Of a stretch of DNA of 64,000 nt, positions 31 through 15,106 are shown piece by piece; the stretch's first letter is position 1; every line of letters begins with the position of its first letter. The notes beneath the pieces are model-generated. The model was not told the origin of the DNA. It did not search any database and saw only the letters and a list, made by a program, of their open reading frames with translations. The position numbers and the translations under genes were made by a program. The DNA comes from Akkermansiaceae bacterium (lineage in GTDB: Bacteria > Verrucomicrobiota > Verrucomicrobiia > Verrucomicrobiales > Akkermansiaceae). The stretch is from assembly GCA_043758445.1 (NCBI GenBank), contig JAYVNM010000166.1, positions 398 to 64,397 on the forward strand, read 5' to 3'.

Positions 31-1462
31 CGGGCCATCCCCACGCGGGTGGGGAAATCACCTTTGCGGTAGAGCAGGTCATGCCCCTTGACGGGCCATC
101 CCCACGCGGGTGGGGAAATCTTGGGCGAGGGTGACGTGGGGTAATTGGTCGGCGGGCCATCCCCACGCGGGTGGGGAAATCCAAGCCGGATTCAAAAAGG
201 TGGATTCCGCCGCCGGGCCATCCCCACGCGGGTGGGGAAATCCACGGCGCTCGCGGCCACGGTGAGCGCCATCTCGGGCCATCCCCACGCGGGTGGGGAA
301 ATCACCTTTCTCCTCGGCACCAGCTCCACGATCCTCGGGCCATCCCCACGCGGGTGGGGAAATCGCAAGCAGGATATTGTTCGCGCCGTCGATGGCCGGG
401 CCATCCCCACGCGGGTGGGGAAATCATGTGTGGTATCTCCTACCGGCAGCGGCAAGACGGGCCATCCCCACGCGGGTGGGGAAATCGCGCTCAAACACGG
501 TCGTTAAACCCATGCCGCCGGGCCATCCCCACGCGGGTGGGGAAATCGCGAATGCCCACACTGCAAAGGCGACGGAACGCGGGCCATCCCCACGCGGGTG
601 GGGAAATCTTTGGACTGCTCGAATATATGAAGCCAAAGATCGGGCCATCCCCACGCGGGTGGGGAAATCCGATTGTAATGTTCAGCGCGCGTCCAGCCGT
701 GCGGGCCATCCCCACGCGGGTGGGGAAATCCTCCTCTGCTTCAGCCCATCCATCTCCAAAAACGGGCCATCCCCACGCGGGTGGGGAAATCCTTTTCGGC
801 GGCCTTCTTGGCCTTGTCGTCGGCGGGCCATCCCCACGCGGGTGGGGAAATCTAGTTGAGAGTTGAGAGTTGAGTGAAAGAATTCGGGCCATCCCCACGC
901 GGGTGGGGAAATCGTCACTGGATTCGACAAAAACCAAACCCCATCCGGGCCATCCCCACGCGGGTGGGGAAATCCACGGTCGAGGTGATTTGATCGTGTT
1001 GAGGGCCGGGCCATCCCCACGCGGGTGGGGAAATCGGCAAGCGGCGGCTCAAGAGCTGGGGAATGACCGGGCCATCCCCACGCGGGTGGGGAAATCGGAT
1101 GGGAATGCACTGGTGTGGACCTCGCCGACGGGCCATCCCCACGCGGGTGGGGAAATCATGCGCTGATGGCCACGCCGGCGAAAACGACGCGGGCCATCCC
1201 CACGCGGGTGGGGAAATCCTCGGCGAGACCGGTATCATGCACCCGCTTTACGGGCCATCCCCACGCGGGTGGGGAAATCCCGCCGAAGGCGACCTCGATG
1301 AGGTGCGTTTCCGGGCCATCCCCACGCGGGTGGGGAAATCGCAGCGGCTAGCTACCCACTCGACAGCGGCCGCGGGCCATCCCCACGCGGGTGGGGAAAT
1401 CCAAGATTGCTTGGCTTGAGCCCCGCGCCCGAGCGGGCCATCCCCACGCGGGTGGGGAAATC
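31..1462 (-). CRISPR. Type I-E CRISPR array: 24 identical 29-bp repeats and 23 complete 32-bp spacers (61-bp period). The partial spacer at 1-30 shows the array continues past the window edge
   Basis: The plus-strand repeat CGGGCCATCCCCACGCGGGTGGGGAAATC recurs exactly every 61 nt from 31 to 1434. Its reverse complement GATTTCCCCACCCGCGTGGGGATGGCCCG matches the E. coli K-12 I-E repeat GAGTTCCCCGCGCCAGCGGGGATAAACCG at GAxTTCCCC...GGGGATxxxCCG, and has a CCCCAC/GTGGGG stem. That sets the transcribed strand as minus, the same as the adjacent cas genes. Confidence 0.97.
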
Positions 1463-1543: not shown

Positions 1544-1855
1544 TTAAAAAGGGCAGTTATCGGGCTCGATCCATGATTCAGCAATGAGCGAAATTCCTGA
1601 CAGCTCGACGCCGATTCTGCCGGATTTTCCATCTGGGCCGGTTCGTTCCACCTCATATCCTTGACAGTTCGGGGCGGAGGAGATGACGAGCATCCCGAAT
1701 TCTTTCGGGACGTTTCGCAGGATGTAATCCATCACCTTACGATGCGTCCTCACATTGAGCGTACCGACGAAGACATTCGGTTTTGGCTCGATGAACCAGC
1801 GCTTGAGATGGCCGCGTATGGCGGGCGGGACATCATTGCAGACGAGAACGGTCAT
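1544..1855 (-). CDS. cas2: Cas2 (type I-E)
   Basis: 103 aa. VCNDVPPAIRGHLKRWFIE aligns with E. coli Cas2 VTENVPPRLRGRLAIWLLE. It is the last gene before the leader and array. Confidence 0.9.
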   Translation of the reverse strand: MTVLVCNDVPPAIRGHLKRWFIEPKPNVFVGTLNVRTHRKVMDYILRNVPKEFGMLVISSAPNCQGYEVERTGPDGKSGRIGVELSGISLIAESWIEPDNCPF

Positions 1856-1999: not shown

Positions 2000-2896
2000 T
2001 CAAGCCTCCGAGTGGGGTTGGAGGGGGTGGTCGGGCGGGGCGTCGTCGGGATTTTCGCCGAGGCCAACGAAGAGTTTTTTTAAATCTTCCGGCATTCTGC
2101 GGAGCATGCGGGTTTCCTCGACCTTCTGTTTGAGCAATTTTCTTACAAGAGTGCCATCGTCATTTGGATTGATGGAAAGTGCTTCGAAGGCGGCAGGCCA
2201 ACTGGTCTCATGTTTATAGAGATCCGCCGCATCGTAGATGAATGGCAGTGTCCCGGCAGCATGGACAAAGCCTAGCTGGGGGATGAACCCCATCGAGCAA
2301 CAGACGGCAGCGGTGAGGGCGTAGAGCGATGCATTGGAGGCTGATAGAGCGCGGTTAATACCATCGGCGAGCTGCCAGTTGTCTGACTTGTAATCGCGGC
2401 CTTTCCAAGTGACGCCGTATTTCAGGCCGAGATCGGCGTAGGTTTGTTTTACGCGTTTCCCCTCCATGCCCCGGAGTTGTTTGATGTTCACCCCATGCAC
2501 GCTGGCTTGAGGGAAACGGTGGAGAAACATCCGGCGGGCGATTTCATTCTGGGATTTTTTATCGGCCCAAGCGGTCGCATGGATGCGGGCCATGGAGTTG
2601 TCGTGATTCGGCGTGATGCCGAAGGCGTAGAAGCGCAGTCCATCCTCGCCCAGCCAAAGCAGCGGGCAATTGCACTGCGCGGCAGCTTTCACTGCGGCGT
2701 GGGTGATCGTGGTGCCGGGTCCGAGAATGAGCGCGGAGACGGTGGCCACGGGAAGCCGGGTGATGAGTCCGTCGCTACCGATCCATTTCACCGAGGAGTC
2801 ATCCACCTCCAGTCGCCCATGTTCCAGATAGATCGGGGTCCAGCGGTCCTTGGCGGGAGCGAGCGTATCGAGGGGCGGGCGTTCGAAGATGGGCAT
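2000..2896 (-). CDS. cas1: Cas1 (type I-E). Start taken at MPIFERPP; an alternative ATG at 2938 would overlap cas5
   Basis: PAKDRWTPIYLEHGRLEV and ITHAAVKAAAQCNCPLLWLGEDGLRFYA align with E. coli Cas1 PLKDRVSMIFLQYGQIDV and VSHAAVRLAAQVGTLLVWVGEAGVRVYA. Confidence 0.92.
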   Translation of the reverse strand: MPIFERPPLDTLAPAKDRWTPIYLEHGRLEVDDSSVKWIGSDGLITRLPVATVSALILGPGTTITHAAVKAAAQCNCPLLWLGEDGLRFYAFGITPNHDNSMARIHATAWADKKSQNEIARRMFLHRFPQASVHGVNIKQLRGMEGKRVKQTYADLGLKYGVTWKGRDYKSDNWQLADGINRALSASNASLYALTAAVCCSMGFIPQLGFVHAAGTLPFIYDAADLYKHETSWPAAFEALSINPNDDGTLVRKLLKQKVEETRMLRRMPEDLKKLFVGLGENPDDAPPDHPLQPHSEA

Positions 2897-2903
2897 TGGA
2901 TGA

Positions 2904-3620
2904 TCAGGGGCGTTCGCCGGGGCTGAGCCGCCGGACATGGCGGGAGTGGTAAGCGGCTGGGACGGGTCCGTGGTGACGGCCAAAGGCGATGGGTTGGTCG
3001 GATTGGTAGAAACTGCCATCGCCGGAATTTTCTGTCAGACCCTCGAGGGCTGTCATTTCCGCAGGGTCACAGCCAAGTATAGTGGCGAGTTGTGCAAGTG
3101 CTTCACTTGCGGTCACCGCGACGACGGGACTGAGAGGCGTGGCAGGAAGACAGGATTTTCGACCGAACCAGACTCCCCAGACGGGATCGAGCAGGGCGGC
3201 GGCGGCATGATGCAGGGTTGCGGGATCGCCTTGGAAGAGAGCGATGAAGCGAGCGTCGGTGAGGTAGGTGCGGCGGGTGATGACGGTGCCGAAGGGGCTG
3301 CCATCGCCGGCCTTGCGTGGAATGTGAAGTCTTTGAACGGGATCTGTCTTGTCATAGCCGCCGCCGATGGTGTGGAAATCAGCAAGGCGGAGGGAGGGAT
3401 GAGGCTTCGGCCAGCGCAGGACGCTGAAAGTGAGTGCTGCGTAGGGCGCGAGGAGTTCCGCTTCATCCGGCGCGTGTTTGTCGATGCCGAGGGCGGCGGC
3501 AAGCACGCCGACGAGGGCGCTCTTGGTCGGCCAGCTTTCGGTTTCCCGGCGCTGGAACTTTGACGAGACGCCCCAGGATTGGAGTGGCGCGTCGATGAGG
3601 AAGGCGAGGGTTTCAGACAT
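2904..3620 (-). CDS. cas5: Cas5e (CasD), Cascade subunit
   Basis: Start MSETLAFLIDAPLQSWG compares with E. coli CasD LILRLAGPMQAWG. The later FGRKSCLPATPL compares with LGRRSCPLTHPL. An ATGTCTGA overlap joins it to the cas7 stop. Confidence 0.88.
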   Translation of the reverse strand: MSETLAFLIDAPLQSWGVSSKFQRRETESWPTKSALVGVLAAALGIDKHAPDEAELLAPYAALTFSVLRWPKPHPSLRLADFHTIGGGYDKTDPVQRLHIPRKAGDGSPFGTVITRRTYLTDARFIALFQGDPATLHHAAAALLDPVWGVWFGRKSCLPATPLSPVVAVTASEALAQLATILGCDPAEMTALEGLTENSGDGSFYQSDQPIAFGRHHGPVPAAYHSRHVRRLSPGERP

Positions 3621-4635
3621 CGGTGGCGAGGAGTTGGGCAATAAAGGAGTCGAGGCCGGTTTCAGTGAGCCAAAATTTATCACCGAGGCTTCCCCAGGTT
3701 TTTTCGAGAGATGCGAGGTGTTCCTTCATCGTCGTGAGGGAAGCGGTCTGAAGGCCCTTACCCTTGGTTTTGATGGGATCTTCAAAGGCGTTGATGAGTT
3801 GGAGCGGTTGACCCTTGGACTTGCGGATGCCCAGAACCTCAAAAGGTAACGTGGCGGCGTTCATCGAATTCTGGCGGGCACCGGGGACGGCGATGAGGGA
3901 GGCCCGTATGAAATCTGCAAGGATAGTGCGACGCTGTTCCGGGTTGAGCTTTCCAAGGTTTTTTTCGCAAGCAAACTGGTCAAGATTGATGGCGGTGTAG
4001 CGATAGTAGGTGGCGGAATTGAATTCAAGGGTTCCAATCATACTTGCACCGGCATCTTCCGCATCGGCCTTGAGGTCATCGACCGAGGAGAAGAAGTCGA
4101 TTTCGTTAGAGGCAGAGTGCGTGGAGAGGGCATGGGAAAACATGGCGGCACCTTCGACGTTGAGAGTGGCGTCATTGGCCACCATGCGGCCGAAGAGCGC
4201 GATGTCCGCAGCGTCGAGGCGATCCACTTTCTTGATCGCTTTCTTGGGTTCTTCCCCCCCGGCGATGGCTGTGGCGATCTGTTGGATTTCACCGGGCGAT
4301 AGATAGACGGCAGTGGTAACTTGATCGGGCTTTTTCGCATCTACCTTGCTGAAGGCTTCGCAAACGCTCTTTGCTTTTTCGGCGGCGGTAGTTTCATCCA
4401 TGCCAGCGGCAACCAGTGCTTTGGTAAATGGCTCCAACAGGAAGCGGCTTCGGATGCCTTGGAAAGCGGTTGATTCGCTGCGGGCTAGCAATCGCACGGC
4501 GCGTTTCAGCGATTGGCTGGACAAGCGGGCGCGTGTGACACCGCCGAAGACGGCGGATTTCGGCGAGCCGACGTCGTCGCGGTTGAGGCAGGAGACGGGG
4601 AAGGACTGGAGGATGTGGAGTTCGATGAGGTTCAT
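3613..4635 (-). CDS. cas7: Cas7e (CasC), Cascade backbone subunit
   Basis: [40 protein letters not shown] compares with E. coli CasC [40 protein letters not shown]. Confidence 0.93.
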   Translation of the reverse strand: [340 protein letters not shown]

Positions 4636-4653
4636 TGGAGTTGATAGATGATG

Positions 4654-4670
4654 GTTGAGAGTTGAGAGTT
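4654..4670. repeat. Short heptamer tract (GTTGAGA x2 plus GTT) in the 33-nt gap upstream of the cas7 ATG
   Basis: Read directly. The plus strand 4636-4680 contains no C, so the mRNA sense is G-free. The same heptamer makes up spacer 853-884. Confidence 0.8.
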
Positions 4671-5511
4671 AAGATTTTTTCTGGGAGATGCGATTTTTGG
4701 ATTCGGTGAGGGCTTTGAAGTTTTCGGTTGTTGAGATTTTGTTGCCGCTTTTGGCTTCGAGGGCTTTGCGAGCATCGCCGGCGATGGTGCCTCCGGCTTT
4801 GGCAGCTTGTTGGTTTTGGGGAAAGCCATGGGCGTCGCGCTTTTTGGCGATCTCGGTGGTGGAGGCCTCGCCGAGCATGGTGAAGATGAGTTCGAGGTCG
4901 GTCATGTGGTCGCGGAGGTTCTCCTTGGGATTGGAGAGAGCCTTAAAATCTTTGTATTCGGATGGCGTCATGCCGAAAGTGGCTTTGCTGATTTCCGCTG
5001 TGAGGATGGCAAATTCTTTTCCCTCTTTCACACCGCGCTTACTCCACTCATCGGTGAGTTCGTCACGAACGGCGATGCCGCGTAGGCGCTTTTCAATCCA
5101 TTCTTCCGAATAACCCTTTTGTTCGTAAATTGTCCGCATGCGCTTGGCTGCGAGCTCGGGGTTTTCAATTTCCTCAAGCCGCTCGTAACCAATCTTCGCC
5201 AGCCAACGCTTGAAGGGCTCGGCTTTGGGGGAGGGAATGGACTGGATGAGGCGGAGAAGTTGTTCCGTGTCAGCAACATCCGTCATCCGCTGCTTGCCGT
5301 CGGCAGCCGTCATTTTCAAACCGTTACAATTTGTAACGGTTTCATTTCCCTCCGCGATGAGACGTTTCTTCATCACCCGCCAATAGACTTGTGGATTCGG
5401 GCTTTCGCTCAGAATTGCGATAACATCGACGACGGCGAAAACCCATTTTTCTTCGGTGGCGTTCCAGGCACGACGGACTTGTTTTTCTCCAAATAGTGAA
5501 ATGGCAGACAT
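4669..5511 (-). CDS. Bro-N / DinD-like protein (280 aa) embedded in the Cascade operon
   Basis: The ATG at 5511 is 4 nt after the cas6e stop, and the stop at 4669 is 33 nt before the cas7 ATG. The N-terminus FGEKQVRRAWNATEEKWVFAVVDVIAILSES...YWRVMKKRL is Bro-N/KilA-N-like. The C-terminal half (IPSPKAEPFKRWLAKIGYERLEEIENPE ... NLRDHMTDLELIF ... AKAGGTIAGDARKALE) is collinear, as I recall it, with E. coli DinD (ILDHMGSTELAANLF...). The longer ORF in the track (to 6054) overlaps cas6e and is taken as an artefact. Confidence 0.7.
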   Translation of the reverse strand: MSAISLFGEKQVRRAWNATEEKWVFAVVDVIAILSESPNPQVYWRVMKKRLIAEGNETVTNCNGLKMTAADGKQRMTDVADTEQLLRLIQSIPSPKAEPFKRWLAKIGYERLEEIENPELAAKRMRTIYEQKGYSEEWIEKRLRGIAVRDELTDEWSKRGVKEGKEFAILTAEISKATFGMTPSEYKDFKALSNPKENLRDHMTDLELIFTMLGEASTTEIAKKRDAHGFPQNQQAAKAGGTIAGDARKALEAKSGNKISTTENFKALTESKNRISQKKS

Positions 5512-5515
5512 GAGT

Positions 5516-6151
5516 TCAAATCGGTGAGAGGCAGAGCATACCGAAGCCGAAGGCCTTGGCGGAGCCGATGCCGTGGATGAAAGCTTCGCGGAGAAGGACG
5601 GGGTTGGTGACGGTAAGGATGCCGGCGAACTCAGTGGCTGTGTGGAGACCTGGCTTTCCTCCTTTCGAGAAAGGCTGTCGTGGTTGCGGGATGGTGCGAA
5701 TCTCGCCGGGGACGATGATGAAGCCATGCTGGGTGGACTTGCGTTCGAGCCAAGCGAGCAGGTCCTCGCGTTTGGATATAGGGATGCGTTTAGCACTACG
5801 GCGTTTGCCACTGGCATCGCGCGGTGCGGCGAGCTTCTTGGTCGGATTGGCGAGCAGTGAAAAACGGTAGGCCGAATGGGTGAGGAAATTTTCGCCGACG
5901 GGTTTGGTTTTCCATCCTTGATCGGGACACCAATCAGGCTTGGTAGGCGTGGTGGCAGATAGCAACAGAAGGCGGAATCCCTGACCGATGTCATCGAGAC
6001 GAGTGAGGAAATCACGAGCGGCATCCGGCTGGCCGGGAAAACAATCCCAAGCACGCTTATGCCAAGCGTAGCTATCGGAGAAACCGCCGTCCTTCCGCCA
6101 ACGGGCGGCGATCTCGTAGGGAACGAGGGCTTGGGTGAGGTGAAGGTTCAT
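5516..6151 (-). CDS. cas6e: Cas6e (CasE), crRNA endoribonuclease
   Basis: FPGQPDAARDFLTRL and C-terminal GIGSAKAFGFGMLCLSPI compare with E. coli CasE FPNRPDAARDFLFHV and GIGPAKSMGCGLLSLAPL. An ATGA overlap joins it to the cse2 stop. Confidence 0.9.
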   Translation of the reverse strand: MNLHLTQALVPYEIAARWRKDGGFSDSYAWHKRAWDCFPGQPDAARDFLTRLDDIGQGFRLLLLSATTPTKPDWCPDQGWKTKPVGENFLTHSAYRFSLLANPTKKLAAPRDASGKRRSAKRIPISKREDLLAWLERKSTQHGFIIVPGEIRTIPQPRQPFSKGGKPGLHTATEFAGILTVTNPVLLREAFIHGIGSAKAFGFGMLCLSPI

Positions 6152-6642
6152 GCGGCTGGGAGGTCGAAGGGGGCTTGCCAGAATTCTTTGGCCCAATCCG
6201 TTTTCACTCGCTCGGAGTATCCAGCGGACCAGAAATTCAACTCTCGGAGAAGTTTGGCATAGTCGACCGGCACGGCTTCGCGGCTGAGGCGTTTGACGAG
6301 ACGGTGGAGCTGGGGGGCAAGTTCGGCGATATTACTACAAGCTAACAGACGTCGGAAATGGCGGTCATAGGGATGCTCGCCGTCCTTTCTTTCACCCAGG
6401 CGGATGGCGGCGCGGCCAATTCCCATTCCTTCCGCGTGGAGTGGATGGACGGCGTAAAGTGCGGCGACGGTAGATTTGCGATCATCGCCGATGGCACCGA
6501 GTCGGCCGAGCAAGGGCAGGGCTTGATGCTCAGTCGTGTCGCTCCAATAGCGGCGGAGAGCAGCGGCGTGCCCACGGTCATTCTCGCAAAGCTTCACGAG
6601 CTGTGCGATGAACTGGGAGTTGGATTCTTCGTGGGATTTCAT
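6148..6642 (-). CDS. cse2: Cse2 (CasB), Cascade small subunit
   Basis: 164 aa, between cse1 and the next Cascade gene. Arg-rich helical protein (AALRRYWSD...), with size and position typical of CasB. Confidence 0.8.
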   Translation of the reverse strand: MKSHEESNSQFIAQLVKLCENDRGHAAALRRYWSDTTEHQALPLLGRLGAIGDDRKSTVAALYAVHPLHAEGMGIGRAAIRLGERKDGEHPYDRHFRRLLACSNIAELAPQLHRLVKRLSREAVPVDYAKLLRELNFWSAGYSERVKTDWAKEFWQAPFDLPAA

Positions 6643-8090
6643 GGTGTGGCTTTGGGAGTTTTCAACTTGGTGGATTTCGGGCGGAGTCGGCGAAGGCCGA
6701 GCGCATAAGCCTCGATCTGGCGAGGGGTGGAGCGCGGACAGGCATGGTCGTAAGCGGCATAGACCGCCTTGCGAATGGCGAGAGTCCAGGGATCGGAGGC
6801 TTCGCCAAAATTCGCTGAGTCGAGCGGGGTGGGATCTTTAACAAGTTCCAACAGAAGCTGGCGTTCGAGATCGAGGGCATTCCAGAAATGGCGCTGGGCC
6901 ACATCCACCGGAGCGGAAGCGTGCATCATTGAGTCCGAGTAGGCTTTGACGGCGGAGTAAATGAGTGTGGATTGAGCATCAGCGTATTTCATTCCGTTGG
7001 CGTAGGTGAGCTGGCCACTTTCGGTAAAAAGCCGATGCGGGACGGTGAAGCGATCTTCGATGCCATCGAGAATCTTGGCGTCCTTCGCTTTGATGAGTTC
7101 GCCGACCCACAAATCAACATCACCATCTTCGTGCTCGAAAATATGACTCTGGAGAACGAGAGGCGCGGACTGTGCTTGGGTGCCACGAAGGACGGCGAGG
7201 CAGTGGAGATCACGCCAGATTCTGCGGTTCGTGTCGGCACGCAGGAGACGATGTTCTTCCTTGTAAGGAACGATGGTGGCGGAAGGTTCCCGGCATTCCG
7301 GATAAGCGGGATGTTCCAGACCTTGGTCGATGTGAATGGCATACCCGTCCAAAACATTTCCCGTGACATCAAGGCGACAGGAAAGTGGAACCAAGCGTCC
7401 GAGATAGGTTTCAGTGAGTTCTCTAGCAGCGGTGCCTTTAATTTGATCCGGAGTACCGATTTCCCAATAGGGCTTGCCGAAGTTCGGCATGTTTGCAGTA
7501 TCGAGACAATTCGCGAGGATGGTCTGTTTGAGACTTTTTCCTATTAGAAAGGTGTGGAGCATTTTCAAGCTTGGGCCGTTTCCTTTCACCTTGGAGGCCA
7601 TGCTGCCGCCGACAAAGAAGTTCTGATAGCAGAGGATCAGACGGGCTAAACTAGCGGGATCGATGTCACGGGCATCTTCCCCGAAATGATCCAACAGCGT
7701 CGGTGAATTCCCAGCCGCTAGGGTGAAACTCATTTGAACGAGCGGGTAACTCTTATCACCCGGCGTGGCTTTGCACTGAATAAACCGAGGACCGTCGCCG
7801 AAGAGATTGAAATGTGGGTGGATATCCGGTCGGGCGAGATAGGCAGGAACTTTTTCCTCAAGGTCGCTGCCGAATTCCGGCCAGCCATAGATATCCTTGG
7901 GCGCGCCGAGGGCTGCTTGGGTGATGCAGACGAGCAGGCGGATGAGCGAGATGCGTTCGTGAGGGGCGGCATCCAGATCGGCGATTTCTCCGGCGTGGCG
8001 GAAGAGTTCGTCGAGGCTGGTGAGGGAGTGGTGACCGTCGAGCCAGCGGACGGGAATCCAAGGGTGGGAGATGAGGTTGAATTCGGACAT
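6639..8090 (-). CDS. cse1: Cse1 (CasA), Cascade large subunit
   Basis: 483 aa. N-terminus NLISHPWIPVR compares with E. coli CasA NLLIDNWIPVR. It lies immediately downstream of cas3 and has a 4-nt overlap with cse2. Confidence 0.85.
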   Translation of the reverse strand: MSEFNLISHPWIPVRWLDGHHSLTSLDELFRHAGEIADLDAAPHERISLIRLLVCITQAALGAPKDIYGWPEFGSDLEEKVPAYLARPDIHPHFNLFGDGPRFIQCKATPGDKSYPLVQMSFTLAAGNSPTLLDHFGEDARDIDPASLARLILCYQNFFVGGSMASKVKGNGPSLKMLHTFLIGKSLKQTILANCLDTANMPNFGKPYWEIGTPDQIKGTAARELTETYLGRLVPLSCRLDVTGNVLDGYAIHIDQGLEHPAYPECREPSATIVPYKEEHRLLRADTNRRIWRDLHCLAVLRGTQAQSAPLVLQSHIFEHEDGDVDLWVGELIKAKDAKILDGIEDRFTVPHRLFTESGQLTYANGMKYADAQSTLIYSAVKAYSDSMMHASAPVDVAQRHFWNALDLERQLLLELVKDPTPLDSANFGEASDPWTLAIRKAVYAAYDHACPRSTPRQIEAYALGLRRLRPKSTKLKTPKATP

Positions 8091-8102
8091 GGAAGAATCG
8101 GG

Positions 8103-10751
8103 TTAGAACCAGCCATCATCTTCGGGTTCGAAGGACGGTGGGAATTGGGCTGCTGGATTACGGGTGTGACTAAGGCCAGTTTCAGGATGGTAGTCGAGGA
8201 GGTAAGGCGGGATTTCCGGCGAGCCGATGAGTTCACAGGAAGTCGAGTCGGTCGGGACGGTGGCGAGCACTGCGTCGCTGCAATGTTTCACGAGCCAATC
8301 AGGTTGTCCTTTCAAGTGGCGGACGAGGTAACGCGGGATGCGGATGGCGTTGCGATGGAGGGCGAGGGCGAGCGGATAGTTGAACGGGCCGTAGGAACCT
8401 TGTTGGAAGGGAATACGGTCGCCGCTGAAAAGATCGAGGTGAGTGGAGGTGGCGTTGAGCGGTTGGCGCAAGAGAACGAGCAAGGCGGTGGGCTGGTTGT
8501 TCCAGCGGGTTCGGGCTCCTTCCTTGTCGTCGTAAGTGGCGGAGTTGAAAACGTCTAACATCCTGGCGGTGTTGAGCATTTTCCGGGTTTCCTGATCCAA
8601 ATGATCAAGGAAGACGGCCGCTCCGGTTTCGAGGGTTTCGGGAATCTCGTATGATTTCTCCACCAGATCGCGGATGTCCTGCGGCAGGGTGATCGTGCTT
8701 TGCGGGAGTTCCAAAATAACCTTTGCCGCCTGATAGAGCGAGAACGGTGGATAAACCCAAGCGGAAGGTCCCAGCGCGGATTTGATTTCGCTTTCCGGCG
8801 CAGACCAATTGACTTGCGGCATGAGGATGATGCAGCGCGGTGTTTCAAATCCGGCGGGGCGGGAGCGCGGGTGGCGATGGAGACGGCCGAGGCGTTGGAG
8901 GATGAGATCGACGGGGGCCAGATCGGTGACGAGCAGGTCGGCATCGATATCGACGGATTGCTCGATGACCTGGGTGGCGACGAGAATGCAGCCGTGCGGG
9001 CGGCAGTCGTCGGATTTTCCGAGTTTTTCCATCCAAGCTTGTTCGTTTGCGTCGCGCTGAAATTGGGCGAAGCGGCTGTGGATCAGACCAAAAGTGACGC
9101 GTTGATCCCGGCAGATGGATTTGAGATGACGATAGGTGTCCTGGGCGAGCTTGACGGTATTGCGGATGACGACGACGCAGGCACCGGATTCGGCGGCGGC
9201 GGCGATTTTTTGCCAGATTCCATCGGAGCTGCTGTCAACTTGTTCGATGGTGACCTGAGTGGACGAATGTTCGTTTCCGATCACAGAAATGCTTTCGGCA
9301 TAAGAGCTGCCCTTGGCGACCTTAGTGATGAGTGGGTAGGCCGTGGGTGTTCCTGATTCCACCGCGCCTACCGCAGCGACGAGAGACTTCCGCCTAGAAG
9401 AAGCGAGTGTTGCGGATAAAATGATGACTGAACAGCCGACATCCATAAGCCATTTCACAGTGCGGTCCACGAGAGCCGAGGTGTAGGGATCGTAGGAATG
9501 AACTTCGTCGATGATGACCATTTTCCCGGACAGCGCGAAAAGGCGGAGTGCGGAGTGTTTCACCGGCAGGCAGGACATAATGGCTTGATCGATGGTGCCG
9601 CTGCCAAACGGGGCGAGCAGAGATTTACGACCAGAGGCATACCAACCGCAAAGATTCGTAGCATCTTCTTCGTGAGCGATGGTCGGAGAAATCGCGACGA
9701 TTCGGTCGGGTTTCATCCAGGCGTTGCCGTGGACGAGAGAGGTGATGACGGAATCCGAAACGACGTTTTTCAGGAACCCGGCGACGCGGCTGTGGATGCG
9801 ATTGCTGGTGAGTTGGGTAGGCAGGGCAAAGTAGAGTCCGCGTTCCTCCCCGTCGGTCCAACGTCGGTAGCAAGCGGCGAGAGCGGCTTCGGTTTTCCCG
9901 ACACCCATCGGTGCTTCCACGATGTAGAGACCGGGGGAATCCATTGCGGCGATGAGTGCGGATTGAAGCGGGCGCGGAGATTCTACGCCGGGAAAGAGAG
10001 CACTGAATGCGCAGTGCGGATTTACATCGCGCTGATGCCATGCGAGATCGGAGATGGCTTTGGTCGCATTTTCACGGACACTTGCAGGAGTCTCCTGATC
10101 GGCGAGTGGTCCGCCGGAGGATAGAGGAAACCAGCGGGTGTCGGAGCCGATCCAGTCCGAAAAAGTGATGAATCCGGTAAGCCAATGGACGATAACTCCT
10201 TTGGGGATGTCATTTACAGGAAGTTTGCCGAATACGGCTTCCAGTTCCAGAAGGAGTTCGTCGCGAAGAACCGATGGCCATGTCAGCCCATCCTCATCGA
10301 TCTTCGGAAAATGGCCGCCTTCAGAAGCGAAGTATTTCCCGTGGTGGCCACCCGCCGCGAGCACCCAATCGTACGGACGTCGTCCGACACGCACCGCGTC
10401 CAAAGAAGCAAGGTAAGCTTGGCTGACGATAGAGTGATTTCCCTGATAAGAGTCGCTGCCCTTCGCATTGGTAAAATCCCAGTGCGGACGAGCTTTGAGT
10501 TGAAACCCGGGAGTGATTTTCCCAATATCATGCGCTGCTGCTAAGGTCACCGCTCCAACCGGGGGGAGGTTGCGACATGCTTTCGGAAGTCGCCCTTGGA
10601 CCGCTTCCGCTACTGCACCAACGATTAAGCAGTGATCTCTTACCGTCAGCGCAGGATGGCCAGTGACGGGATCGGTTTTTGCCCAGCAGTCTTGCAGGCG
10701 TATGGGAGGGGTAATCAAATTGATAGATTTGGTTGAAGCAATGCAGCGCAT
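8103..10751 (-). CDS. cas3: Cas3 HD nuclease / SF2 helicase (type I-E)
   Basis: 882 aa. HD region HDIGKITPGFQ, Walker A APMGVGKTEAAL and DExH box IIDEVHSYD. It is the first gene of the operon. Confidence 0.93.
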   Translation of the reverse strand: MRCIASTKSINLITPPIRLQDCWAKTDPVTGHPALTVRDHCLIVGAVAEAVQGRLPKACRNLPPVGAVTLAAAHDIGKITPGFQLKARPHWDFTNAKGSDSYQGNHSIVSQAYLASLDAVRVGRRPYDWVLAAGGHHGKYFASEGGHFPKIDEDGLTWPSVLRDELLLELEAVFGKLPVNDIPKGVIVHWLTGFITFSDWIGSDTRWFPLSSGGPLADQETPASVRENATKAISDLAWHQRDVNPHCAFSALFPGVESPRPLQSALIAAMDSPGLYIVEAPMGVGKTEAALAACYRRWTDGEERGLYFALPTQLTSNRIHSRVAGFLKNVVSDSVITSLVHGNAWMKPDRIVAISPTIAHEEDATNLCGWYASGRKSLLAPFGSGTIDQAIMSCLPVKHSALRLFALSGKMVIIDEVHSYDPYTSALVDRTVKWLMDVGCSVIILSATLASSRRKSLVAAVGAVESGTPTAYPLITKVAKGSSYAESISVIGNEHSSTQVTIEQVDSSSDGIWQKIAAAAESGACVVVIRNTVKLAQDTYRHLKSICRDQRVTFGLIHSRFAQFQRDANEQAWMEKLGKSDDCRPHGCILVATQVIEQSVDIDADLLVTDLAPVDLILQRLGRLHRHPRSRPAGFETPRCIILMPQVNWSAPESEIKSALGPSAWVYPPFSLYQAAKVILELPQSTITLPQDIRDLVEKSYEIPETLETGAAVFLDHLDQETRKMLNTARMLDVFNSATYDDKEGARTRWNNQPTALLVLLRQPLNATSTHLDLFSGDRIPFQQGSYGPFNYPLALALHRNAIRIPRYLVRHLKGQPDWLVKHCSDAVLATVPTDSTSCELIGSPEIPPYLLDYHPETGLSHTRNPAAQFPPSFEPEDDGWF

Positions 10752-10994
10752 TGAAACTGCTGATAGAAAATTGTCGAGGTGAAAGGTCAGTTACAGACGA
10801 ACTCCGTTGAGTTGATACAAGTTTTGCTATTCGGAATCTGCTTTTTATCACCCAGAGTGGGACAAATAGAAGGTCAGGCTCAAAAAAGTCTGAATAGTTT
10901 TTAAATGAATTCGCAGGAATGCTCATGGCGCAGTGGACGCCAGAACAGTCTTACTTCGTATCGTTCGCCTTGGACGATTACTGGCAGCTCCAAG
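10752..10994 (-). promoter_or_regulatory. cas3/Cascade operon upstream region (promoter not mapped)
   Basis: A 243-nt lower-GC non-coding gap between the malQ stop and the cas3 ATG. It contains CAAGTTTTGCTAT (10818-10830), the reverse complement of the leader 13-mer, followed by GAATCTGC (10834-10841), which is also in the leader. Confidence 0.45.
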
Positions 10995-13685
10995 CTATGA
11001 GCGCCCGGCAGCTTGAATCAGTCTGGCTAGCTTGCGGTTGAAGGCACAGGCTGCCGCGAGTTCACCGAGGCCGAGGTGCATCCGGTAGCGCCAGTAATAG
11101 GGCATGATCGCCGGGACGTTGATTCGCTCTGCGTCCGGGTTCGGGTGGCGGAGTGTTTCATCCATCGCTAGCAAGTCTTGGAGTGGAAAAATTGCCCACA
11201 TCGCGGGGGCTTGCAGGTGTTGCCAAATGATGCGAACGGCGACCTCGCCCGAGAGTTCGGCTACGGGATTTTCCATGCCGAACATCTGCCGAGCAAACCG
11301 AGCGGTCGCTTGGGCATCCTCTTGCCACCAAGCCCGCAAGGTCGGCATGTCGTGGGTGGAGGGACTCACTACACTCATGTAAGTTGCGTCCAAAGGATTA
11401 TAAAACTCCCGGTCCGAAGTCTTCGGCATCCGCTGGATTTCTAACGAAAGAATACCTAGCTCCTGGAGCACGCCCGGCACACAGGCGGGCACCATGCCGA
11501 GATCTTCGCCGCATAGCAGCATTGGGCTAGCCTGCCGCATCGCAGGCAGTTTCCCATAACCGCTCGCCTGCCAGAAACTCTCCTGTCGCTGATAGAAATA
11601 GTCGTTGTATAGTTCCTCAATCCGCCACCGGCTTTCATGCGGAAGGTCGCGGAAAGAATTAGTCGCCTGCATTGAGCAACGCGGATGGAACTGCGTGCCA
11701 TGCGAGCCAGGCACTTCAAAAAACAAAACCTCGCTTGCGCAATCTAGCAAACCTTGGCGGATGAAATCAGCATGGGGATTTTCCGCGAAATAATCATCGA
11801 TCCGCCGCTGCGTGAGAACTTGTTCTCGGAGTTGAAAATAGCCGTTTCCACAATCGTGGAGGAAATGGTTTTTCACATAATCCGCTTTATCGCCAAAGTA
11901 TTCCATCAGGGCATTCCAGCGGATATAGGGGCGGCAATATCGATTGTAATCAAAGTCGATGCCGCGTCTGCGGATTTCATCAATATGGATAGGCATGGCC
12001 GGATCAAAGTAGCCCATGATACCTTCAATGTGCGCGTAAGGGACCTGCCAGATCCGGAAAAATCCCAGAATATGGTCGATCCGGTAAGCATCGAAATAAC
12101 GGCTCAGTTGGGCAAATCTCGACCGCCACCATGCGTAGTCATCCTGTTGCATGACATCCCAACAATACGTCGGAAAACCCCAATTCTGGCCCTTCACGGC
12201 GAAGGCGTCCGGCGGAGCACCGGCCTGCGCGTCCATCTTGAATAAGTGCGGCAACGACCAAGCATCCACCGATTGGCGGTCGATACCGATGGGCAAATCT
12301 CCCTTGAGCGCAAGGCCCAGGTCATGCAAGTGACGGACCGCATCCGCGAGTTGGCAGTCGAGTTCGCATTGCAGCCAAATGTGATAGGCAAGCTCAGGCC
12401 ACTCGGCGTGGCCAGGTGATGTTAGAGCCAATGCTTTTTCCCGATCATAGGTGGCCCACTCTTCCCATTGAGAGAAATCCGCCGTGCCATAGTGATCGCG
12501 TTTCACACAAAACACCGCATAGGGAATCACCCAGTCGGCATTTTTTTTCAAAAATTCCTGGAACGCGGCCTGGCTAGTTATTTCACGCTGGTGTTGGTCA
12601 TACATCCGTCGGGTGAGTTTCATTTTCACCTGCATCACCGCCTCATAGTCCACCTGTTCCAGCGCGTTTAGGGCGACCCGTGCGGTGTCTCTATCCACAG
12701 TGAAATCCGGCGGCATGGTATAACTCAAATCATCTATCCGCAGATAGAGCGGGTGCAGAGCGAACACACTGATCGCGGAATACGGATACGAGTCCGTCCA
12801 GTCATGGGATGAGGTGGTGTCGTTGATCGGTAAGATTTGGATCAGTTTCAGCCCGATGCCACCCGCCCAATCCGCCAGCGGCTTGAGATCGGCGAACTCC
12901 CCCACCCCAAGGCTTTTCTCCCCACGCAGCGAGAACACCGGCAAAGCCACCCCGGCCCCCCGGAACAGCCCGCTCGTATCCCGGCGGAAACATTCATCAC
13001 TGATCTTCGTCAACTGACGGGCGGCCATCTGCCGGACTGGTAGTCGCCGGTTCTCGCCGAGTTCGAGACTCACGACGCAGTTTAACTTGAGATCAAACAA
13101 GCCATATTTATAGTCAATATTCCAATCCGCCGGGAGATATAGATTTACCTGCCAGACATTCGGTGCCGTTTCGTGCAGCGGCACGCCGGAATGCCAGCCC
13201 CAGTCGCCAAGCTCGCTCACACTTCCTAGCAGGCACGGCACTAGGCTGACAGGCACGGCAGCCATGCGGAGCTGGAACGAGTGATTTACGCGCTCCGGCT
13301 CAACCAAACTAACAAACCATTCCCGCACAGGTAGGACGGCGCGAAACGCACTGGTTTCAAATGCATAGTCGGCAGTCCCGGCCGAGCACCAGCTATCCAG
13401 CAGTAGGAGCGCCTCCTGCGCCGTGAGATCGATCTCCGCGATCCGTGGCCCATGCCACTCGTCCAGCTCGACGCCGTTGGTCTGGCGGAGCTGATAGTTG
13501 TATTCGATGCGGAAACACCCCGCGCCCCGGATCGCCACGCTGGTTTCCCACTGTTCGTCATTGAGCCAACGCAGCGGCACGACCTGATCGAAACGAACGC
13601 CATTCGCATCCAGCACGGTCGAGTATTTCAGCCACAGCGACTGGCCGGGGACGGTGTGATAATTCAGACGAAAAACGATTTTCAT
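10995..13685 (-). CDS. malQ: 4-alpha-glucanotransferase (GH77, DPE2-like, with N-terminal starch-binding-type modules)
   Basis: GVALPVFSLRGEKSLGVGEFADLKPLADW...LIQILPINDTT...YPYSAISVFALHPLYL is the GH77 signature. The start is set at MKIVFRLNY. Confidence 0.85.
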   Translation of the reverse strand: MKIVFRLNYHTVPGQSLWLKYSTVLDANGVRFDQVVPLRWLNDEQWETSVAIRGAGCFRIEYNYQLRQTNGVELDEWHGPRIAEIDLTAQEALLLLDSWCSAGTADYAFETSAFRAVLPVREWFVSLVEPERVNHSFQLRMAAVPVSLVPCLLGSVSELGDWGWHSGVPLHETAPNVWQVNLYLPADWNIDYKYGLFDLKLNCVVSLELGENRRLPVRQMAARQLTKISDECFRRDTSGLFRGAGVALPVFSLRGEKSLGVGEFADLKPLADWAGGIGLKLIQILPINDTTSSHDWTDSYPYSAISVFALHPLYLRIDDLSYTMPPDFTVDRDTARVALNALEQVDYEAVMQVKMKLTRRMYDQHQREITSQAAFQEFLKKNADWVIPYAVFCVKRDHYGTADFSQWEEWATYDREKALALTSPGHAEWPELAYHIWLQCELDCQLADAVRHLHDLGLALKGDLPIGIDRQSVDAWSLPHLFKMDAQAGAPPDAFAVKGQNWGFPTYCWDVMQQDDYAWWRSRFAQLSRYFDAYRIDHILGFFRIWQVPYAHIEGIMGYFDPAMPIHIDEIRRRGIDFDYNRYCRPYIRWNALMEYFGDKADYVKNHFLHDCGNGYFQLREQVLTQRRIDDYFAENPHADFIRQGLLDCASEVLFFEVPGSHGTQFHPRCSMQATNSFRDLPHESRWRIEELYNDYFYQRQESFWQASGYGKLPAMRQASPMLLCGEDLGMVPACVPGVLQELGILSLEIQRMPKTSDREFYNPLDATYMSVVSPSTHDMPTLRAWWQEDAQATARFARQMFGMENPVAELSGEVAVRIIWQHLQAPAMWAIFPLQDLLAMDETLRHPNPDAERINVPAIMPYYWRYRMHLGLGELAAACAFNRKLARLIQAAGRS

Positions 13686-14059
13686 GGGTTGCTTGGCAGA
13701 AATCTTGCCCCGCCCACCGACCACTTGGCGATGCGAAAAAGTCCTCAGAATCCGACTTCATCCCTTGACCCGATGCCCACCCGCGACGAAACCGACATAT
13801 GCTCCATTTACTAACCCTTACGATCGTGATCTGCGGGATTGTCGGCGGTCTGGCACTCGCCCGCCTGATCACGAACTGGTTCGCCGACCGTTGAACTTAG
13901 AAACCGCGAATTAACGCGAATGGACACTAATAAATAACTGATAATAATATAGTTACGTAGTTTCTTGCCATTCAAACACAAGCCCAACTCTGCGTCCCTT
14001 TGCGACCTCTGCGCCTTTGCGGTGAAAATCTTTTCTCAAACTGCGGATTTTAGTTTGAA

Positions 14060-15106
14060 TCAACTCTGCGAGACTTTTTGCAACAGACGAAGTTTTTCCA
14101 ACGCCGCACCGCTGGTGATCATCTCACGCGAAATTTCGATGCCATCGCCCATGTCATCTGCTAGACCGGCGCAGGCGAGGGCGGCCCCGGCGTTCATTAG
14201 GACCATGTCGCGCTTCGGCCCGGTTTCGCGTCCGGCTAGGATGGCTTCGAGGATCGCGGCGTTCACCTTGGCATCGCCGCCTTGGAGTTCCGCCACCTCC
14301 GCGTGTTTCATGCCGAAATCGTGCGGGTGGATTTCCTCGTCCACCATTTCCTGATAGAGACCGGATTTAAAAATCCGCGTGGCCCCCATGAGGCTGACTT
14401 CATCGACGGCGCGGCCATCGCCCGTGGTGCCGTGGACGACCCAAGCGCTGTGGCGGCCGAGACGTTGCAGGATTGCGGCGAAGTCCGGGCAGAGGTCGCG
14501 ATTGAAAACCCCGATGAGTTGGCACTGCGGGCGGGCCGGATTGAGCAGCGGGCCGATCAGGTTGAAGATCGTCTTCACGCCTTGGGCCGCCAGCGATTTT
14601 CTAACCGCGACGACCGCCTTGAAGGCGGGATGATAGAGCGGGGCAAACATGAAGCCGATGCCCGCTTTTTCCACACAGTTGCGAAAATCATCCGCCGGCA
14701 GATCAATGCGAATTCCGAGCGCCTCAAGCACGTCTGCGCCACCACTTTTCGAAGTGATGCCGCGGTTACCATGCTTCACGACCACGGCCCCGGCGGCGGC
14801 GGCGATGAACATGGCGGTGGTGGAAATATTGAATAAATCAAGCTGATCACCGCCCGTGCCACAGACATCGAGGGTGGGGCCTTCGAGATCGAGCAGGCCG
14901 AGATGCGGATTGATCGCGTGTTCGAGAAATGCCTCCACGAAGCCCGCGATCTCGCCCGGAGTTTCGCCCTTGAGGGCCAAGGCCGCCAGCAGCCGGGCCT
15001 TTTTCTCGTCCGGCATGGCCGGGTCTAGCAATAGCGCCGCCGCCACTTCCACTTCGCGCGGAGACAGCTCCTGTTTGGCTTCCAAATGATGAATCAAGGC
15101 ATCCAT
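14060..15106 (-). CDS. trpD: Anthranilate phosphoribosyltransferase
   Basis: CGTGGDQLDLFNISTTAMFIAAAAGAVVVKHGNRGITSKSGGADVLEALG is the TrpD motif block. Confidence 0.92.
   Translation of the reverse strand: MDALIHHLEAKQELSPREVEVAAALLLDPAMPDEKKARLLAALALKGETPGEIAGFVEAFLEHAINPHLGLLDLEGPTLDVCGTGGDQLDLFNISTTAMFIAAAAGAVVVKHGNRGITSKSGGADVLEALGIRIDLPADDFRNCVEKAGIGFMFAPLYHPAFKAVVAVRKSLAAQGVKTIFNLIGPLLNPARPQCQLIGVFNRDLCPDFAAILQRLGRHSAWVVHGTTGDGRAVDEVSLMGATRIFKSGLYQEMVDEEIHPHDFGMKHAEVAELQGGDAKVNAAILEAILAGRETGPKRDMVLMNAGAALACAGLADDMGDGIEISREMITSGAALEKLRLLQKVSQS

Follow-up and report, generated by a model that had tools for sequence, protein, structure and literature searches.

Gene X inside a type I-E CRISPR-Cas operon

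In this study, we describe a gene, here called X, at positions 4669..5511 on the minus strand of a 64,000-nucleotide stretch of an Akkermansiaceae bacterium genome (contig JAYVNM010000166.1; the whole stretch is hereafter the window). It lies within a type I-E CRISPR-Cas operon, between cas6e and cas7, and encodes a Bro-N plus DinD/DdrC-like protein of the PADLOC family PDC-S13, as judged from its open reading frame (ORF), its family matches, its homologues and the ratio of its nonsynonymous to synonymous substitution rates (dN/dS). The reading that we favour, with a probability of roughly 0.55, is that X is optional, is co-transcribed with the operon, and is either an accessory that binds DNA lesions or an embedded defence candidate, and that it is not a subunit of Cascade. 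The observations on which we build are the identity and position of the gene, its recurrence in other loci, the purifying selection that acts on it, a mosaic cassette in its N-terminal domain, and a fold similarity to the DNA-damage protein DdrC.

On the minus strand, X runs from an ATG at 5511 to a TAA at 4669-4671, giving 280 aa. A program-made ORF list had stretched the same frame to a GTG at 6054 (461 aa), overlapping cas6e; we take the ATG at 5511 as the start because all homologues begin MSAISLF. Directly upstream, the TGA of cas6e (5516-5518) is followed by the four nucleotides ACTC and then by the X ATG, so that stop codon and gap together occupy 5512..5518 (minus strand, from reading of the junction); the corresponding cas6e-X gaps in related X-bearing type I-E loci measure about 11-26 nt. 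Downstream, a 33-nt spacer (4636..4668, minus strand) separates the TAA of X from the cas7 ATG at 4635. A comparison of junctions showed this spacer to be A/C-rich, with CTCTCAA occurring twice and without a Shine-Dalgarno-like motif, and repeat-containing leaders like that of the window precede cas7 both in loci that carry X and in loci that do not. These coordinates agree with a first-pass annotation made from the letters of the window, which had placed a 280-aa ORF on the cas strand, with gaps of 4 nt to the cas6e stop and of 33 nt to the cas7 ATG. Its further claim, that X has no room for a promoter or terminator of its own, is in keeping with the tight packing and with our detecting neither a sigma-70-like promoter nor an intrinsic terminator near X on the cas strand, with the reservation that Verrucomicrobial promoters may deviate from the sigma-70 consensus. 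Given the shared strand and the tight spacing, co-transcription of X with the Cascade operon would be the simplest reading.

According to Pfam and NCBIfam models, the operon of the window reads cas3, cse1, cse2, cas6e, X, cas7, cas5, cas1, cas2, and the locus looks intact. The order cse2-cas6e-cas7-cas5 differs from that of E. coli, and is common to nearly all related metagenomic type I-E loci that are long enough to judge.

Recurrence and selection in type I-E loci

The cas6e-X-cas7 junction was also found in L002, L004 (on the contig of L001), L008, L009 (on the contig of L003), L018 and L019. These six other X-bearing type I-E loci are all Verrucomicrobial, lie in differing chromosomal neighbourhoods, and have Cas effectors that are down to 47-58% identical. 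Among the type I-E copies, the X backbone, that is the gene outside the cassette described below, has a dS of 0.8-2.1 and a dN of 0.03-0.06, resulting in a dN/dS of 0.03-0.07. The backbone is under strong purifying selection, and because dS is this high, its conservation does not stem from recent transfer. The first-pass annotation had allowed for X being a passenger confined to one strain and marked by insertion scars; the same junction in six other loci and the strong purifying selection speak against that.

So is X a part of the Cascade machinery itself? In seven loci, with Cas proteins as little as about 50% identical, X occupies the same cas6e-cas7 junction. Selection on it is strongly purifying, and both its backbone clade and its C-terminal tail are specific to type I-E. 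All of this would suit a regulator or accessory subunit dedicated to Cascade or Cas3, bound to it physically and linking interference or primed adaptation to the handling of DNA damage. We nevertheless consider such a role unlikely, as the nearest type I-E relatives do without the gene. A reverse survey starting from Cas7 covered 47 metagenomic loci (Cas7 32-89% identical), and X was absent from the cas6e-cas7 junction in all surveyed metagenomic type I-E loci that covered it, those with a Cas7 of 86-87% identity included. Near relatives lacking X include L084 and L085, with a Cas7 that is 87% identical and a 35-nt gap at the junction, as well as L093 and L089, and in a Cas7 tree X-bearing and X-less loci are intermixed within three crown subclades. 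X is thus not found in essentially all type I-E loci of its lineage, as a core Cascade subunit would be. Rather, it is an optional yet recurrent component of one type I-E lineage.

Domains, family and predicted fold

X is a two-domain protein of the Bro-N/DinD-like superfamily. The N-terminal Bro-N domain, residues 12-105 (5197..5478, minus strand), was recognised with PF02498 at 39.2 bits, against a gathering cut-off of 25.6, residues 12-105 aligning to positions 2-91 of the 96-position model; the predicted fold and its BFVD neighbours agree with this, as they do with the first-pass annotation, which had named a Bro-N module here. It is followed by an ultra-conserved, all-helical C-terminal domain at residues 106-262 (4726..5196, minus strand), delimited by AlphaFold2 helices and invariant alignment columns. 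Within it, residues 148-253 form the DinD-like stretch that carries the motif K-ENLRDHMTDLEL. The protein ends in a basic disordered tail, residues 263-280, which with the stop codon occupies 4669..4725 (minus strand) and has a predicted local distance difference test score (pLDDT) below 50 at residues 266-280. Over its full length, X matches the PADLOC PDC-S13 model PDLC04920 (E=2.5e-126, 418.8 bits, X residues 3-277 on positions 6-278 of 286), and phrog_15286 likewise matches over the full length (E=2e-105).

The AlphaFold2 model of X was built on an alignment of 82 sequences and has a mean pLDDT of 80.5. Its N-domain is arranged as beta-beta-alpha-alpha-beta-beta-alpha (E14-17, E22-26, H27-35, H40-53, E63-68, E74-80 and H82-91; pLDDT 84-89), and the helices of the C-domain span residues 95-255. 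When compared to the PDB with Foldseek, the model gave as sole significant matches the chains of Deinococcus radiodurans DdrC (7qvb, 7udi, 8u0g). These matches have E-values of 3.7e-6 to 1.1e-4 and a probability of 1.0, and extend over 206-251 aligned columns in both domains, with modest TM-scores of 0.31-0.50. No nuclease domain, whether of the HNH, GIY-YIG, LAGLIDADG or PD-(D/E)XK kind or similar, was found in X by Pfam, NCBIfam, PHROG or PADLOC, and no nuclease fold occurs among its PDB and BFVD matches.

DdrC is homodimeric and binds pairs of nicks or double-strand breaks. Recognition of the lesion lies with its N-terminal domain (about residues 1-98), and core DNA binding and dimerisation with its helical C-terminal domain (PMC11347143). 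The authors of that work reported no identifiable homologues outside Deinococcus. DdrC and X share a division into two domains of comparable size, and their fold match covers both. Like DinD, DdrC is induced by DNA damage. It differs from X in having no detectable sequence similarity to it, in its reported restriction to Deinococcus, and in having no link to CRISPR. If the modelled fold holds, DdrC may be a divergent member of a widespread Bro-N/DinD-like family, and X, by analogy, would be a DNA-binding protein. A link of X to DNA damage and recombination, which the first-pass annotation had proposed, is plausible and gains strength from the predicted DdrC-like fold as well as from the recurrence of X beside cas3 in type I-C and I-G loci. 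As a side observation, the invariant residues R13 and R87 of the X family lie numerically near R14 and R81, with which DdrC recognises nicks, a likeness in residue number only.

To E. coli DinD, X shows a weak similarity in sequence. The NCBIfam equivalog model for DinD (NF008573 / PRK11525) reached 16.6 bits on X, far below its cut-off of 242 (E=0.0038), in an alignment that is collinear, with residues 148-253 on model positions 148-250. BLASTP of X against E. coli DinD gave 25% identity over the C-terminal 111 aa (E=0.002), and hhalign of 82 X relatives against 38 DinD relatives gave a probability of 33% at E=4.6e-4. A motif, K-x-L-(R)DHM-x3-EL, is invariant or nearly so in the X-family and DinD alignments alike. 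Furthermore, E. coli DinD (b3645) resembles X in size, in having a Bro-N domain (32 bits) followed by a helical C-terminal domain, and in the collinear order of its predicted secondary structure. The collinearity with DinD that had been put forward in the first-pass annotation thus stands as a weak match of the C-terminal half together with the common Bro-N domain; orthology does not follow from it. From these comparisons, X appears DinD-like in architecture, but is not an orthologue of DinD.

Passages in PMC6590174, and the work of Uranga 2011 (PMC3190988) as cited in PMC8989531, describe E. coli DinD as LexA-regulated and as modulating RecA via postsynaptic filaments. The gene for E. coli DinD stands alone, as an SOS gene flanked by yicC and yicG, whereas X sits inside a cas operon. 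The DinD and X families are alike in their high conservation and patchy distribution. DinD proper is found in copies 74-84% identical across Enterobacterales, Aeromonas, Pseudomonas, Limnobacter and one metagenome-assembled genome of the Chlorobiaceae; such conservation combined with patchiness, as for X, suggests strong constraint and horizontal spread.

The Bro-N domain (PF02498) is also shared with phage Bro-N/KilA-N 'antirepressor' proteins, and the BFVD fold neighbours of X are viral Bro-N/KilA-N proteins, among them 'repressor domain' and 'antirepressor' proteins. Relatives of X, 48-61% identical, moreover occur on seven viral contigs of IMG/VR. Since Bro-N is present in phage antirepressor and regulatory proteins, and a BrxR/WYL regulator lies near X in L003, X might be regarded as an antirepressor-type or DNA-binding transcriptional switch for the cas operon, as the first-pass annotation had also considered. 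We found no support for this, and regard it as very improbable. X has no conserved neighbour that encodes a cognate repressor, it lies in the middle of the operon instead of at a regulatory boundary, and proteins at least 70% identical to it occur in unrelated operons (ABC transporters, comM, type III restriction-modification (R-M)). Unlike that of phage Bro proteins, its C-terminal domain is not of the KilA-C, Ant or Bro-C type; in the model it is DdrC-like. X also differs from typical phage Bro proteins in being chromosomal, embedded among cas genes, and far more conserved.

Occurrence beyond type I-E

Homologues of X number more than 8000 database proteins, the top 120 of which are at least 82% identical, and 992 clusters at 50% identity were retrieved with E-values of 1e-30 or better from among 1.84 billion cluster representatives. 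A scan of species-representative genomes yielded relatives 58-93% identical, and the phyla with relatives comprise Verrucomicrobiota, Proteobacteria, Bacteroidota, Ignavibacteriota and Patescibacteria, as well as DPANN archaea. For the loci described here, neighbouring genes were annotated partly with our own ORF caller and phmmer. In about 21 of the 35 loci with an X of at least 69% identity, the gene lies in or beside a type I cas operon.

In type I-C loci X takes various positions. It is found as cas3-X-cas5c-cas8c in L026, with a similar layout in L013, as cas7c-X-cas4-cas1-cas2 in L021 (Ignavibacteriaceae), and upstream of the operon in L006, L007 and L038; the type I-C operon of L041 carries X as well. 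Type I-G loci have it either as cas3-X-(718 to 826-aa protein)-GSU0053-GSU0054 (L011, L015) or upstream of cas3 (L016, L017). In L014, L020, L032 and L050, X adjoins a Cas3-like helicase only; in L014 there is one such gene on either side of it, both of the helicase-HD type (955 and 998 aa; 7137-14106).

Outside of CRISPR-Cas, relatives of X lie between res and mod of type III R-M systems (L054, L074), and between the ATPase and permease genes of ABC-2 transporter operons (L024, L028; about 9064-11621), with gaps of 13 nt and 19-22 nt. X also directly follows comM, 17-20 nt past its stop codon, in L027, L035, L139, L140 and L142, and in L010, L012 and L141 it lies between comM 3' fragments, following one of them. 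The islands that begin with X in these comM loci are variable, and in several of the loci comM 3' fragments of 52-149 aa follow. The 3' end of comM seems to be a hotspot for integration, at the edge of which X lies. In L140, the island reads comM-X-X'-cas3-cse1-cse2-cas6e, with tandem X paralogues (48% identical) ahead of a type I-E cas3. One of the comM loci, L139, is CP059069, a 4.39-Mb Akkermansiaceae chromosome. X is often found beside genes for DNA helicases or translocases, namely Cas3, ComM and type III Res. That its family is also present in type I-C, I-G, comM, type III R-M and ABC-transporter contexts argues further against X being a dedicated Cascade subunit.

This variety of hosts raises the question of whether X should be seen as a mobile cassette, selfish or tolerated, or as a module of island edges, for which cas operons are merely permissive and which brings no benefit to CRISPR immunity. 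Its distribution is patchy, its insertion after the stop codons of operon genes is precise and scar-free, and its position at the island edge after comM comes with duplicated comM 3' fragments (L010, L012, L027, L139, L141, L142). Furthermore, it resides in ABC-transporter operons, a remnant of cas6e lies upstream of it in the type I-C locus L025, and the same cas operons host PIN/Phd toxin-antitoxin pairs. However, a dN/dS of 0.03-0.07 at near-saturated dS in the type I-E clade means that X has long been kept intact, and its context-specific clades, treated below, speak against frequent hopping. Neither in X nor beside it is there a transposase, integrase or nuclease domain, and with about 21 of 35 close relatives its concentration around type I cas genes is strong. 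We therefore hold this explanation to be quite improbable. The tolerated selfish insertion that the first-pass annotation had listed is contradicted by the selection data, though X has clearly moved between contexts.

Evolution of the gene: a conserved backbone with an exchanged cassette

With a GC content of 52.1%, X is below the other cas genes (53.5-63.2%), whereas at third codon positions its GC content (GC3) is 60.1%, against 61-68%. The lower GC on which the first-pass annotation had based a separate origin is confirmed in part, but as GC3 is near that of the neighbours, it largely reflects amino-acid composition. A foreign origin deduced from GC was rejected on this ground.

An alignment of X copies revealed a hypervariable cassette within the Bro-N domain, at residues 27-82 (5266..5433, minus strand), which covers the Bro-N helices and beta-hairpin. 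At least four types of allele, A, A', B and C, are present, with a mutual identity of 32-38%, whereas outside the cassette X is at least 87% identical among close Verrucomicrobial copies. Expressed as dN, this amounts to about 0.7 in the cassette versus about 0.05 in the backbone. The window carries allele A; A' is found in L008 and L009, B in L018, L019, L025, L026, L027, L030, L032, L041 and L056, and C in the archaeal L067, to which the viral copy L137 is similar by eye. The alleles are common to type I-E, I-C, I-G and comM contexts. This exchange regardless of Cas type is a further point against a dedicated subunit, and makes it less likely that the N-domain has one specific partner among the Cas proteins.

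Trees were made by neighbour-joining from small samples. In a tree of whole-length X, the type I-E copies appeared polyphyletic, which we rejected as an artefact of the swapped cassette, since without residues 27-82 they form one clade. In this cassette-free tree, the type I-C copies L006 and L007, as well as L005, are nested inside the type I-E clade, L025/L026 (type I-C) are its sister, and separate comM and I-G clades are found. The nesting of L006 and L007 again speaks against a subunit dedicated to type I-E. Moreover, the C-terminal tail follows context, its identity to that of the window being 67-89% in type I-E copies and 28-61% elsewhere. Clades that are context-specific, combined with alleles that are shared, indicate that the backbone is inherited with its host operon and that the cassette is exchanged by recombination.

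Possible traces of movement are present at the flanks of X. In L025, X is immediately preceded by the 3' end of cas6e, some 30 codons long (...GSAKAFGFGTLCLSPF*), and followed by a type I-C cas5; judging from this remnant, X appears to have carried its type I-E flank into a type I-C locus. In general, X comes with a leader of ~4-26 nt right after the upstream stop codon, and with a downstream gap of ~20-63 nt. Comparison of X-bearing with X-less junctions revealed no direct or inverted repeats that could be insertion scars; in both, the leaders are A/C-rich and contain short tandem repeats. The idea that X might be a homing endonuclease or recombinase was dropped, no nuclease or recombinase domain or fold having been found in it, and no transposase, integrase or nuclease was found to be associated with it.

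A possible role for X

So what could X do within a cas operon? We propose that X would be made from the Cascade operon mRNA. By analogy with DdrC, dimerisation would fall to its ultra-conserved helical C-terminal domain, as would the binding of double-stranded DNA irrespective of sequence. The Bro-N domain would then be the recognition module, its variable surface reading a DNA discontinuity or some other infection-associated ligand. X would in this way bind nicks, gaps and ends, which are the lesions that Cas3 makes on its targets, and which restriction enzymes and recombination helicases make or process likewise. From here, one outcome could be reinforced immunity, with X blocking RecA-type repair or recombinational escape as DinD acts on RecA filaments or, as a variant, holding broken DNA and stabilising fragments. 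The other could be that X, as a single gene, works independently in defence or DNA damage and relies on the operon for its expression. X may affect CRISPR interference or adaptation, and a functional coupling of X to the lesions made by Cas3 is a tentative suggestion on our part, in which we place limited trust.

The same holds for a wider conjecture, which is speculative. It would have the PDC-S13/DinD-like family as a recurrent lesion-sensing accessory of the Cas3-dependent types I-E, I-C and I-G, in which a DdrC-type dimer traps the nicks, gaps and ends made by Cas3, and either blocks repair and escape or feeds primed adaptation, while the Bro-N cassette diversifies recognition. DdrC and DinD would in that case be divergent branches of one broad 'DNA-break-handling' superfamily employed in immunity.

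We must however take into account several points that weigh against X as a lesion-binding accessory. Co-transcription is deduced from the spacing of the genes, and in the window X does not adjoin cas3. The likeness to DdrC exists at the level of the fold only, with TM-scores of 0.31-0.50: searching PDB sequences with the profile of 82 X sequences returned nothing at E-values up to 10, and a single-sequence phmmer search likewise nothing. When a model of E. coli DinD was compared to the PDB, DdrC was the top match at a non-significant E-value of 0.11, the C-terminal domain of that model having a pLDDT of ~55. The cassette alleles do not track Cas type. Relatives are also found in operons that are unrelated to DNA cleavage, such as those for ABC transporters (L024, L028), and the relatives of 58-64% identity, from Bacteroidota and archaea, are mostly in heterogeneous, unrelated neighbourhoods, in which R-M and toxin-antitoxin genes are modestly present. 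Because of these mostly unrelated neighbourhoods of distant relatives, a CRISPR-specific role of X is not required. Finally, in the literature that we searched there was no experimental test of a PDC-S13 member, no fold or mechanism assigned to the family, and no paper on PDC-S13.

Embedded genes and the wider significance

Small genes lodged in the operons of type I R-M and other defence systems with minimal intergenic space, such as those for RhuM, Fic/DOC, YhcG-DUF1016 and PrrC, form a familiar class. X shares with them its nesting between subunit genes, and differs in having Cascade as a host, in belonging to another family, and in its swappable cassette. In the type I-E loci of another clade, genes are embedded between cse1 and cse2: rhuM in L115 (3682-4785), L117 (3649-4788) and L120 (2233-3258), a YhcG/DUF1016 PD-(D/E)XK protein gene in L096 (3711-4883), and a RhuM fragment together with a Bro-N-Fic fusion in L119 (3167-4760). 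The embedded genes belong to classes that are familiar from type I R-M operons. Gene embedding is thus general in these type I-E loci.

It was through 'guilt-by-embedding', with BREX, DISARM and type I R-M as hosts, that the PDC families were defined (Payne et al. 2024, 10.1101/2024.01.29.577857), and in the same paper most of them are experimentally untested and CRISPR is not mentioned. PDC-S13 and X correspond in being single genes embedded within another defence system; the hosts differ, as those that define the PDCs are BREX, DISARM and type I R-M, and those of X are CRISPR-Cas systems of types I-E, I-C and I-G. The supplements of the PDC paper (10.1101/2024.01.29.577857) contain no PDC-S13 text. 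It is already known that the X family is listed as a defence candidate, and that gene embedding occurs in R-M, BREX and DISARM. Our literature searches returned no report of a recurrent embedding in type I-E, I-C and I-G operons, of a DdrC-like fold, or of a swappable Bro-N cassette; a preprint on CRISPR-linked genes made no mention of Bro-N, DinD, KilA or antirepressor proteins, and searches combining Bro-N, CRISPR and Cascade found only irrelevant papers.

Accessory genes that recur inside the Cascade operons of three type I subtypes are rare, and such recurrence points to a shared need downstream of Cas3, namely the fate of nicked and degraded DNA. The connection between CRISPR and recombination has so far been discussed mostly via RecBCD and RecA. 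If X handles lesions made by Cas3, then CRISPR interference and adaptation would be tied to recombination control. The fold match, if true, would provide a first mechanistic handle on PDC-S13 and on E. coli DinD, and DdrC would no longer be an orphan confined to Deinococcus. Moreover, 'guilt-by-embedding' is hereby extended from R-M, BREX and DISARM to CRISPR-Cas operons, where RhuM, YhcG and Bro-N-Fic are embedded in type I-E as well. Even if no function emerges, X is a well-documented example of gene embedding, being conserved and having a recognition cassette that is modular and recombines.

Other features of the cas locus

The remaining genes of the operon all lie on the minus strand of the window. 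Next to X are cas7 (cse4/casC; 3613..4635; PF09344, TIGR01869) and cas6e (5516..6196; PF08798, TIGR01907), the true start of which is probably internal to the ORF. Further upstream follow cse2 (cas11e; 6148..6642), cse1 (cas8e; 6639..8090) and cas3 (HD nuclease plus helicase; 8103..10751), and downstream of cas7 come cas5e (2904..3683), cas1e (2000..3019; TIGR03638, 292 bits) and cas2e (1544..1855), those without a model named here having been assigned by Pfam/NCBIfam. A repeat scan identified a CRISPR array at 31..1462, to which no strand was assigned, with 24 identical 29-nt repeats at a period of 61 nt. Its spacers matched neither the rest of the window nor any of the fetched loci.

The type I-E loci are strongly mosaic beyond X. 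Compared to the window, Cas1 is 92-97% identical, whereas Cas3, Cse1, Cse2, Cas6e and Cas5 are 47-58% identical (L002, L009), and in L004 the identities are 58% for Cas7, 87% for Cas5 and 97% for Cas1. This implies frequent module exchange between the adaptation and effector genes of these loci. In addition, cas5 and cas1 are separated by a PIN plus PhdYeFM pair of the opposite strand in L001/L004 (2902-3557), and likewise in L002 (10699-11360), L003/L009 (10670-11362 in L003 coordinates) and L008 (12642-13334), with a second PIN gene in L002. The window is without this pair, and its cas5 and cas1 overlap.

The intergenic leaders of the cas operon of the window contain short tandem heptamer repeats and no Shine-Dalgarno-like motif. 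In the cas1-cas2 interval (1863-1988), ~17 copies of GGAGATT/GGTGATT (plus strand) form tandem heptamers, and the leaders ahead of cas7 in L008, L002, L009 and L019 have repeats that include CCCCAAT x5, GAAAACT x4 and CCATCTG/C. Such heptamer-repeat leaders could be translation leaders or slippage-prone tracts. Directly upstream of cas3, at 10995-13724 on the minus strand, lies a 909-aa ORF whose predicted product resembles a glycoside hydrolase or 4-alpha-glucanotransferase.

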